DNA from: Chamaesiphon sp.
GTDB taxonomy: Bacteria; Cyanobacteriota; Cyanobacteriia; Cyanobacteriales; Chamaesiphonaceae
Direction: 5' to 3'
Assembly: GCA_965246715.1 (NCBI GenBank)
Contig: CBDFFH010000014.1
Span: forward strand, 1 to 64,000
Length of the DNA: 64,000 bases
Part shown: positions 4,547 through 43,197 of the stretch, in pieces
Position numbering within the stretch: the stretch's first letter is position 1
How the letters are laid out: each line of letters begins with the position of its first letter
Notes under the pieces: generated by a model
What the model was told of the DNA's origin: nothing
Seen by the model: only the letters and a program-made list of their open reading frames with translations
Database searches by the model: none
Translations under genes and position numbers: made by a program

Positions 4547-4954
4547 ATGCGATCGAATTTCACCCAAATGTATATCCACTGCGTATGGGCAACATGGGAT
4601 CGATCGCCAATTATTACCCCTGATATTCAAGAGGCTGTATATGCGGTAATAATTAAAGAATGCCGAGAATTAAAATGCGAACCGATCGCGATTGGTGGGG
4701 TTAGCGACTATATTCATTTGCTAACTAAATTCTCAGCCACTTTAGCTATTTCTGAATTAATGAAGCAGATTAAAGGTAGCTCATCTCATTTTATCAATTA
4801 TGAGATTAAACCGAATAACTTTTTTAAATGGCAAGGTAGCTATGCTGCTTTTACAGTTAGCCATGAATCACTCGATCGATTAGTGCAGTATATCAAACAT
4901 CAAGAACAACACCATCGGCAAACATCATTGGTACCAGATTGGGAACTAATCTAG
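4547..4954 (+). CDS. tnpA: IS200/IS605-family Y1 HUH transposase (REP-associated); HUH motif reads DYIH
   Basis: YIHCVWAT, IGGVSDYIHLL, IKGSSS, WQGSYAAFTVS, YIKHQEQHH. Confidence 0.85.
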   Translation: MRSNFTQMYIHCVWATWDRSPIITPDIQEAVYAVIIKECRELKCEPIAIGGVSDYIHLLTKFSATLAISELMKQIKGSSSHFINYEIKPNNFFKWQGSYAAFTVSHESLDRLVQYIKHQEQHHRQTSLVPDWELI

Positions 4955-40637: not shown

Positions 40638-40715
40638 GAGGGAGTAATTTAGTGGCTAGTGAATTAGTTTTTACTATAACTCCCCTCCTGGAAGGGGTAG
40701 ATACTGTCTTGAATG

Positions 40716-41687
40716 TCAAGGGGTGGCGAGCGAATAATTAGGGTCAAAGGGCTGTTGAGACTTTAAAATGCCAAAAGCCAAATGGACTAATTTACGCATG
40801 ATGGCACCAATCGCCTGCATTTTAGCCTTGCCACGAGCGAGTAATCGTTCGCTGAAAGTTTTGAGCAGAGGATTATGACGCATCGAGACTACCGCAGGCA
40901 TATAAAGAGCTTTGCGGAGTCGAGAATTACCAGTACAAGACAACCGAGTTTTGCCATGAACGCTGGTGCCACTAGATCGCTCAGATGGAGTTAAACCCGC
41001 ATGGGCAGCTAATTGACGAGCATTCTGGTAATCTTCGATCCGACCGATTTCTGCCAACAAGACAGCCGCAGTCTGTGCGCCAATTCCAGGAATTGAGACC
41101 AACAGATCTCGCTGTTGTTTTAACTGTGGATGTTTGTCGAAATGGTCGCTAATTAATTGTTTAATTAGGGCTTGCTGTTCCTGGAGATAGGTCAGATGAG
41201 ATTGAGTGAGTTCAGCTACTTTGGTGGTGGCTGTTTCCACGCGATTGTGTTCGGCTGTGACCATGTCCTGAAGAGAATCTAATCGCCGGACCAGGGCTTG
41301 TAGTTCTTTGATTTCAGGGGCTGTTGGTTTCCACAGTTCTGGTTTAATTGCTGCACAAAAACGGGCAATCAATGCTGCATCAACTGAATCAGTTTTCGTC
41401 CGTAATAGTTCGCCCTTGGCAAACCCTTGAATTCGGGCTGGATTGACGACACTAACGGCAAAGCTGGCTGAGTAGAGGAATTCGGCTAAAGCGTCTCCAT
41501 AGATGCTGGTCGCTTCCAGACAGGCGTGCATTTGGTCGATCCCTTTTTGTTTGAGCCACTGCTGCAAACTCTCAAACCCTTGCAGATCGTTGGTGAATTT
41601 TTTGGATTTTGTTCTCGTCTCTCCCATGATTAGTACTACATGAAAGTCTTTTTTGCTGATGTCTATCCCTAAAAAATTAACTGTCAT
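40716..41687 (-). CDS. IS110 DEDD recombinase/transposase
   Basis: GIDISK, LEATS, KTDSVDA, SIPGIG, GLTP..SSG serine loop, LRKALY, MRKL. Confidence 0.96.
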   Translation of the reverse strand: MTVNFLGIDISKKDFHVVLIMGETRTKSKKFTNDLQGFESLQQWLKQKGIDQMHACLEATSIYGDALAEFLYSASFAVSVVNPARIQGFAKGELLRTKTDSVDAALIARFCAAIKPELWKPTAPEIKELQALVRRLDSLQDMVTAEHNRVETATTKVAELTQSHLTYLQEQQALIKQLISDHFDKHPQLKQQRDLLVSIPGIGAQTAAVLLAEIGRIEDYQNARQLAAHAGLTPSERSSGTSVHGKTRLSCTGNSRLRKALYMPAVVSMRHNPLLKTFSERLLARGKAKMQAIGAIMRKLVHLAFGILKSQQPFDPNYSLATP

Positions 41688-41725
41688 TAACTGCTTACTC
41701 CACTCCTAACTATGCTCAAAGAACT

Positions 41726-41892
41726 TGACAGACTGTTTAACTAACCTTGTGATTGCAGGCTTTTCGGTAAATCGATTGCCTAAGATACTGTCCAGCTTTA
41801 GGTGTGTCTGTCATCAGTTGTGGGAGCTTATCTACGCAGCAGACTAACAATGTTGTCTAAGGGGCGGGCCAGCTTCACCGATTACTGATGTC
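41726..41892 (-). ncRNA. predicted bridge RNA core (target-binding and donor-binding loops)
   Basis: Minus strand: LTG CCCGCCCCT (41868-41860), RTG GCGTAG (41837-41832), LDG ACAGTATCT (41791-41783), RDG ACAAG (41750-41746); stems CATCAGT/ACTGATG and TGACAGAC/GTCTGTCA. Confidence 0.85.
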
Positions 41893-42078
41893 CTCACTCT
41901 CACTTTCTCGCATCTGGCGATCGATCTCTGAAACTGTTATGGTTTCTTTACGCCGATCGATTTATTCCTCTGACTCCCTTGGTTTGTGTCGATCTCTTTG
42001 AACTACGTTTGTTCTAAGCATTGTCTATATCGATCGATTACCTACCTCTCTTTAAGATACAAGGGGTGGGTTCCAAAA

Positions 42079-43197
42079 TTATCCCCCAAAAGCAGTTGGG
42101 AAGGCTAATTTGAGCGCAGCAGTGAGCAGTAGATTGGCTAAGGCGACGGGGAGTAAAAATTTCCAACCAAGATCGAGCAATTGGTCGATCCGCACGCGGG
42201 GAACAGTCCAACGGGTCAGAATGGCGAGGAAGACCAAGAAATATGCTTTCAGGACGGTCATCGCAATCCCTAACGAGGCATCGACTACTTGTACCCACGA
42301 AGTGGCAGGATCGACATGGAATAAATTACTAATTAACTCGATCGGAATCGGACTCGACCAACCACCTAGATAGAGAACCGCAACTAAGAGTGCAGATAAT
42401 ACTAGGTTAACGTAGGAACCCACGTAGAACAGCGCAAATTTCATTCCGGCATATTCAGTTTGATAGCCCGCTACCAACTCTTCCTCAGCCTCTGGGAGGT
42501 CGAAGGGCAGTCGTTCGCACTCAGCCAAAGCTGAAATCCAGAAAATCACAAAGCCAACTGGTTGTCGCCAGATATTCCAAGATAAAATTCCATAGCCCGA
42601 CTGTTGCTGGACGATATCGATCGTACTCAGACTATTGGACATCATCACGATCGCCAGTACCGACAACGCTAACGGGATCTCGTAACTGATCGACTGAGCC
42701 GCAGCGCGCAATCCACCGATCAGCGAATATTTATTATTTGATGAATACCCCGCCATCAACAACCCGATCGGCACGATACTAGATAAGGCAATCCATAAAA
42801 ATACTCCGGTATTGATATCGGTAATCACCAAATCCTGACCGAATGGCACGATCAGATATGAGAGAAATACTGGCATCACGACCAAAACTGGCCCCATCGT
42901 GAAGAGATAGGGGTCAGCCTTGGCTGGCAAAATATCTTCTTTAAACACGAGCTTGAGACCGTCAGCAACTGGTTGCAGTACTCCCAAAGGCCCGGCATAT
43001 TCAGGGCCGATCCGTTGTTGGGCAGCAGCAGAGATTTTGCGTTCTAACCAAACATTGACCAGTACGCCTACCGTAGCACCGACGATCGTCAGTAGCATCG
43101 GAAACGGCATCCACAGCACTTTTGCTAGTTCCGCTGAGATCCCGAGGTCACTGAGGGATTGGATAAAAGTTCCTTGGAGATCGATACCTGAATTCAT
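42079..43197 (-). CDS. ndhA: NDH-1 subunit 1
   Basis: [45 protein letters not shown]. Confidence 0.97.

Follow-up and report, generated by a model that had tools for sequence, protein, structure and literature searches.

The closest described relatives of the element reported here are IS621 and its kin. The bridge RNA of Escherichia coli IS621 is the subject of Durrant et al. 2024 (PMC11208160) and Hiraizumi et al. 2024 (PMC11208158), with a structure under PDB 8WT6. According to the accessible parts of PMC11208160, 5,511 RNA-target pairs were analysed and the guides follow the targets; its tree table places a cyanobacterial representative in the cluster of IS621 and ISCro4, and one site in its target list has AAACCCGCCCCTAC, next to a different RNA. 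The system, thousands of natural target-guide pairs and an IS621 cluster with cyanobacterial members are thus already known (PMC11208160). ISCro4 (IS622; PDB 9T56) follows the same two-loop scheme, is 88% identical to IS621 and is active in human cells; in the same source, in its available part, Perry et al. found 18 of 72 predicted orthologs active in human cells (10.1101/2025.05.14.653916), so readable guides are no guarantee of a usable tool. The accessible portion of a preprint on ISPpu10 of Pseudomonas putida (10.64898/2026.03.19.712850) describes an IS110 element that enters a REP with an upstream stem-loop, and notes the shared left-target-guide wobble and REP targeting, together with a junction promoter; the need for the stem-loop was shown for ISPpu10, which resembles the present element in these described features.

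The window, by which we mean the whole 64,000-nucleotide stretch analysed, carries an IS110 element that is a distant (44% amino-acid identity) IS621 ortholog. It is a clean example of the mechanism described in 2024, not a new mechanism. We consider it very probable that this is an intact and recently mobile insertion sequence of IS621 type that works, or lately worked, under the direction of its guides. Our literature search, with most subscription papers outside its scope, listed no work that deals specifically with bridge elements of cyanobacteria or with guides that follow RAYT-linked repeats. The element adds a fully annotated ortholog with known natural targets from a phylum for which we found no dedicated bridge-system study, and its practical value would be that of a candidate native tool for cyanobacteria, the mechanism being unchanged.

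Element, recombinase and left-end guides

Counting both CT cores, the element measures 1,365 bp (Table 1). Its neighbours on either side, both on the strand of the element, are an NADH dehydrogenase gene and a 4Fe-4S gene, probably ndhA and ndhI. The cyanobacterial nature of the host is supported by an octamer, presumably HIP1, that occurs 5,606 times counted on both strands against 130 expected, and by relatives at 81-85% identity from Chamaesiphon sp. Every motif that an earlier, sequence-only reading of the window had listed was located on the minus strand where it had been placed, with a left end of 374 nt. A CT core is present at both element ends, and in the five genomic copies (5/5) there are neither long terminal repeats nor a target duplication past the core. 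The distance from stop codon to right core is 15 nt; membership of the IS1111 group, which carries its RNA in a long right end, was therefore rejected.

Table 1. Positions of the features of the element and of the second-family copies. Positions without a contig name refer to the window.
Feature	Position	Strand	Basis or remark
IS110 element, IS621 type	40699..42063	-	ends identical in 5/5 genomic copies; 40698-42063 skipped by contigs of two runs, one study
Right target half AC and remainder of the second repeat interrupted by the window copy	40682..40698	-	2 empty same-type sites elsewhere in the genome
Left donor half ACAGTAT and right CT core	40699..40707	-	sequence; copy comparison
Right end CAAGACAGTATCT	40711-40699	-	motif located in sequence
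Predicted -35 box TTGACA, overlapping the recombinase stop codon	40714..40719	-	sequence
IS110 recombinase, 323 aa, intact catalytic and wedge residues	40716..41687	-	ORF, domains, residue alignment
Left non-coding end, 374 nt, with predicted bridge RNA	41688..42061	-	spans core to ATG
Predicted donor-binding loop and stems	41739..41797	-	alignment-based
Right donor guide AATCACAAG (41754-41746) and handshake dinucleotide GT (41745-41744)	41744..41754	-	IS621 register
Left donor guide ACAGTATCT = ACAGTATC(T)	41783..41791	-	equals element right end 40707-40699
Predicted target-binding loop and stems	41812..41890	-	alignment-based
Right target guide GTAG (41835-41832) and handshake dinucleotide AT (41831-41830)	41830..41835	-	right flank AC in 5/5 copies; identical to IS621
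Left target guide CCCGCCCCT	41860..41868	-	exact to flank in 4/5 copies, wobble in 1/5; aligns to IS621 left target guide
Predicted -10 box TATCTT, promoter complete only on the excised circle	42054..42059	-	script-joined junction; not in linear scan
Left end CTTGTATC	42063-42056	-	motif located in sequence
Left CT core	42062..42063	-	sequence; copy comparison
Left flank and core CCCACCCCT	42070-42062	-	motif located in sequence
Left target half CCCACCC	42064..42070	-	A at position 4 = predicted G:T wobble with guide
Terminator-like hairpin separating the element from the NADH dehydrogenase gene upstream	42083..42102	-	consensus match only
Second-family copies	G000 C15:206384-207337, C22:94330-95283, C43:135098-136051, C47:100503-101456		

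The recombinase had been read as an intact DEDD plus serine enzyme, and this holds: ORF 41687-40716 is uninterrupted, and D9, E58, D100, D103 and S239 align with IS621 D11, E60, D102, D105 and S241. The wedge residues Y262/M263/V266 align with IS621 Y264/M265/M268. The protein has domains PF01548 and PF02371, and passes NCBIfam NF033542 with 243 bits (cut-off 140). It is 44.1% identical to an annotated IS621 transposase, the comparison sequence having been obtained via a protein search of plasmids; the element gave no match by blastn against E. coli genomes. The recombinase has just two solved relatives, IS621 and ISCro4, the latter being second best (E 6.5e-75). Both IS621 and ISCro4 are known from experiment, whereas the distant window element is known from sequence.

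The left end likely makes a bridge RNA. The IS110 bridge-RNA architecture proposed by the sequence-only reading is found here in its IS621 form, with four guides at IS621 positions in the 374-nt left end. The element shares with IS621 the domain pair, the catalytic residues, the left-end place of the RNA (here a predicted one), the CT core, the junction promoter layout and insertion at the CTAC tip of a REP-type repeat. The 14-bp donor, ACAGTATCTTGTAT, is the published IS621 donor; the identity stated in the sequence-only reading agrees with the published table. The right target guide and handshake bases are also identical (TGCGTAGAT), as is the left donor guide over 8 letters, and the G:T wobble at left-guide position 4 has its equivalent in a pair seen in the IS621 structure. 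The two systems differ in the left target guide (CCCGCCCCT here and ATCGGGCCT in IS621, 4/9 letters), in the length of the left end (374 nt against about 197), in a right end that extends just 15 nt beyond the stop codon and whose predicted -35 box overlaps that codon, in the right donor guide (AATCACAAG here, ATTTGCAAG in IS621), and in the low-copy target of the window element. The donor guides match the joined ends, with one letter in the distal part of the right donor guide mismatching in the IS621 register. The change in this guide would put an A:T pair in place of the G:T of IS621, leaving one distal mismatch unless a bulge shifts one letter.

Some parts of the earlier reading have to be narrowed. 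The donor loop had been called kept, which is true of its guides, but the loop is not identical to that of IS621. The target loop had been called reprogrammed: the left target guide does differ, but the right guide is unchanged, and since the protein tree gives no direction, the word is unsupported as a direction of change. GCGTAG (41837-41832) had been read as the complement of CTAC; this stands for GTAG, but not for the remaining letters. ACAAG (41750-41746), which had been read as the complement of CTTGT, lies inside the right donor guide. An extended right target guide was also considered and discarded: TGC before GTAG predicts GCA after CTAC, which is seen in 0/5 copies, and TGC is common to IS621.

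The probability of an exact 9-mer in 374 nt by chance is about 0.0014, and with one mismatch or fewer about 0.04. Right guides of 4-5 nt mean little alone, so that the weight rests on the copy and ortholog tests. The single-sequence fold of the left end was no better than shuffles (z 0.47), and Rfam at the gathering threshold gave no match in the window. With 18 aligned left ends, RNAalifold yielded, unprompted, four helices closing two internal loops, in which 13/19 pairs are changed on both sides; it also set two pairs within the donor loop. The 30 pairs of a structure based on the window sequence were formed in 76.6% of cells, against 66.5 ± 1.0 in shuffles and 27-44% when slid, both controls leaning in the structure's favour. 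A constrained fold of the window sequence recovered the target loop and, in part only, the donor loop. The two stem-bounded loops claimed from the window letters are therefore supported by the alignment of left ends, but not by folding of the single sequence.

Genomic copies, target repeat and relatives

Five copies with both ends are present in this genome (G000): the window copy (contig C14), one each on C5 and C34, and two on C15, one of which is split by another IS. They are 99.3-99.5% identical; the three other uninterrupted copies differ from the window copy at 7-9 places in 1,365 bp, and the window copy has 5 letters absent from all four others. The right flank is AC in 5/5 copies. The left flank AAACCCGCCC, a perfect match to the left target guide, is found in 4/5, so that the site anticipated for further copies recurs at all four, as CCCGCCC-CT-AC. 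The window copy alone is flanked by CCCACCC-CT-AC, with a predicted G:T wobble at guide position 4; G at this position would permit the A-variant site, which accounts for the placement of the window copy. The repeat at the window copy had been taken as the target of the guide. The guide does match this flank with one wobble, but the repeat is not the main target: it is a second repeat, with two empty examples in the genome, and the window copy has no upstream inverted arm, whereas the other four copies sit at perfect sites ending a GTAG REP-like hairpin whose inverted arm lies 75 nt or less upstream.

The main target is scarce. We counted 5 empty perfect sites and 8 empty A-variant sites, where base composition predicts 1.6 and 1.8; with an AAA prefix there are 4 perfect and 5 A-variant empty sites, against under 0.05 expected. 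A high copy number of the target repeat was not found, with 13 empty and 5 occupied sites in 6.1 Mb. The repeat has a GTAG tag next to an inverted repeat, and inverted copies of it bracket a Y1 transposase gene at L075:1290-1850 (G000 C34:104100-104650). The product of this gene scores 29.9 bits with PF01797 (cut-off 23) and 77.3 bits with the REP-associated tyrosine transposase model NF047646 (cut-off 80). From these features we read the main target as a GTAG-type REP of a REPtron, with the reservation that the transposase is just under the model cut-off. GTAG-family REPs and REPtrons with RAYT transposases are described by Di Nocera et al. 2013 (PMC3733652). In common with them, as far as the accessible part of that paper goes, the repeat has the GTAG end on the other strand, the inverted repeat and the Y1 gene bracketed in inverted orientation; it differs in its long loop (about 35-45 nt), few copies and the sub-threshold transposase score, and was matched to no numbered GTAG family. 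Two other Y1 genes (L077 and L078) are flanked by a different GTAG repeat of 118 copies, targeted by neither IS110 family of this genome, and the window itself holds a Y1 transposase match at 4559-4903 (+) without flanking GTAG repeats. The IS-like element that splits the recombinase gene of one copy (G000 C15:36983-38550, 1.57 kb) has 11-bp inverted ends and an 8-bp target duplication, with a relative (90%) on C36.

Guide-flank covariation was analysed in 30 tabulated ortholog rows. Leaving out 6 extra copies of counted elements and 2 rows without a full left flank (L035 and L065) gave 22 rows, which form 12 guide groups when guides within two letters are merged. For the 12 distinct guides, the first seven letters match the element's own flank at 67/84 positions, a score that includes L053 (a row misaligned by one column, scored 3/7) and L042 (a real miss, 1/7). 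Permuted guide-flank assignments gave a mean of 26.3 (sd 5.6), with a maximum of 58 in 100,000. Position 4 is A in both guide and flank of L048, L147 and L025, the donor guide tracks the right end in L009, L053 and L061, and TTGAC is retained at the right end of most orthologs. In L042, where the flank matches the guide at 1/7 in register, there is a partial match two letters upstream, and an off-register insertion is possible.

A search with the left-terminus pattern returned 37 hits in 11 genomes, 5 of them in this genome. Their flanks comprise 25 CCCGCCC, 4 CCCACCC, 3 with one other mismatch, 3 matching mainly near the core and 2 unrelated one-mismatch hits, that is, a poor guide match in 5/37. 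Where the guide was readable (13/37), 12 matches were exact and the other was the window wobble. The hits are not all independent, some in related genomes having the look of old insertions held in common. A protein tree with 21 rows has one group (support 89/87) of 15, drawn from this genome, from cyanobacterial records and from genomes of the same order, in which at least seven different left guides occur; the branch of IS621 is long and unresolved. Such proteins are common: of 8,000 candidates scored, 371 reached E <= 1e-100. The guide-predicted 11-mer is abundant in 3/5 other host genomes (83, 52 and 30 empty sites; reversed-pattern controls 0, 1 and 5). The generalization that every cyanobacterial guide points to an abundant host repeat was dropped, being false in 2/5 genomes (4 and 0 sites; controls 24 and 3). 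The guide and stem of the window element, and its donor junction, had no hits in the searchable parts of the PMC11208160 supplements.

Within the left end, 88 bp (41957..42044, minus strand) match, at 83-88% identity, the intergenic DNA that separates an AmpG-like gene from a 55-aa ORF in L007, L008, L010 and L011 (4/26 other genomes of the genus). In this genome the stretch is found in IS copies only; CGATCG-type sites mark its borders, and in orthologs its place is taken by other sequence or by tandem repeats. The element may have captured it from a host, or the host DNA may be what is left of an IS.

Proposed mechanism and alternative readings

Catalytic residues, four guides with two handshake dinucleotides at IS621 positions and a guide-predicted site at all five copies can be read from the sequence. 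By analogy with IS621 (PMC11208160, PMC11208158, PMC13626964), read-through transcription would supply both RNA and protein, and the element would excise as a circle whose joined ends form a TTGACA-17-TATCTT promoter that boosts the bridge RNA. The bridge RNA would then guide the recombinase to the 11-bp site CCC(G/A)CCC-CT-AC (target CCCGCCCCTAC) and to the element's own joined ends, with a recombinase dimer on each of the two loops, target and donor, and strands would be exchanged at the CT core. As its target the element prefers the CTAC tip (reverse GTAG) of a REP-like hairpin that has few copies and is linked to a RAYT-like gene.

Joining the ends in silico does give TTGACA-17-TATCTT, a result of sequence alone. 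The circle junction had no match in the assembly, and the circle joint was not among the four joints listed in the read contigs, which drop rare forms. The read evidence is taken without runs X3 and X24, which hold small parts of the stretch only. In the contigs of one RNA run, the right end is covered and the left end with the guides is uncovered. Contigs of runs X1 and X2, from one study, skip 40698-42063, so that related strains lack the element at this locus. In place of three letters of the predicted pre-insertion site, their empty allele shows two different ones; thus, the borders are confirmed, and the exact target is not.

It is conceivable that the guides are real, but that target choice also needs the upstream REP-like hairpin, as for ISPpu10, a bare 11-mer then being a poor target. 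The inverted repeat 75 nt or less upstream of 4/5 occupied sites, the AAA or GAA that precedes the guide match in most relatives, and the target stem-loop used by ISPpu10 in the available part of its preprint (10.64898/2026.03.19.712850) would all fit such a requirement. The window copy, however, inserted where there is no upstream inverted repeat, and 9/13 empty sites carry an inverted repeat too, so that occupancy cannot separate the two models. On balance we think a strict need for the hairpin rather unlikely.

Alternatively, the window copy, or even its entire family, could be a relic that was inactivated recently, with guides that can still be read and a functional RNA-protein complex that no longer forms. 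The failure to find the circle junction in the assembly or among the joints listed, the uncovered left end in the RNA run, the interruption of one copy by another IS and the 5 private letters of the window copy could be taken in this sense, as could the position of the window copy just behind a terminator-like hairpin, since an upstream terminator blocked IS621 excision. These points have to be set against an ORF, catalytic residues, guides and promoter boxes that are all intact, copies that are 99.3-99.5% identical and a site that is polymorphic between strains, and we judge inactivation to be improbable. Least credible is the idea that the guide-target match is a by-product, the left end having copied a piece of the repeat while the protein alone picks the site. 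The left end does hold DNA common to host intergenic sequence (41957-42044), but in 12 unrelated guides the match is found at one and the same place in the loop and varies as the flank does, and guide-directed targeting is proven for IS621; there is hardly any chance that this explanation is correct. An intact, guide-directed element thus remains our preferred reading.

A sister family with the same donor

The same genome offers a natural control in the form of another IS110 family (56% amino-acid identity, 4 full-length copies; Table 1). It shares with the first family the right end, the left donor guide and the right target guide. Its left target guide is ATTGCCCCT, from which the target ATTGCCCCTAC is predicted, and its copies occupy ATTGCCC-CT-AC (two copies) and ATTACCC-CT-AC (two copies), with A again at position 4. 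These 11-mers are common in the genome, with 76 (G) and 39 (A) empty sites, and 0 and 4 for the C and T variants. In G011, a relative of the second family is found at ATTGCCC-CT-AC in 6/6 readable copies (7 loci examined, one without the left end). No copy of either family lies in the target of the other (0/9). Because a sister in the same genome differs in one guide, guide specificity, the position-4 wobble and cross-mobilisation are easy to test, and we consider the sister element the most useful addition of this analysis.

These observations allow a broader, tentative proposal, which we hold to be possible, though somewhat short of an even chance. The two families could belong to a cyanobacterial IS621-type radiation in which the donor and the GTAG-reading right guide are fixed, and the left target guide alone follows RAYT-linked REP families. 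With two elements in one genome, one donor and 0/9 copies crossing, each circle may be tied to its own RNA or protein by some rule that goes further than the pairing of guides. If so, the two elements would form a natural, ready-made test of cross-mobilisation and would provide a native programmable recombinase for cyanobacteria.

Several variant forms were also seen. G replaces T at donor position 12 in two second-family copies, and in the C43 copy the two loops are separated by an insertion of about 220 bp. At G000 C15:204605-207400, one copy per family lies back to back with the other; each occupies its own repeat, and about 140 bp separate the left ends. G000 C54:20135-20250 and C39:58964-59089 hold between them a mini-element of roughly 110 bp, with both second-family ends and neither RNA loops nor gene, and a fused first-family fragment that is also present in G011.
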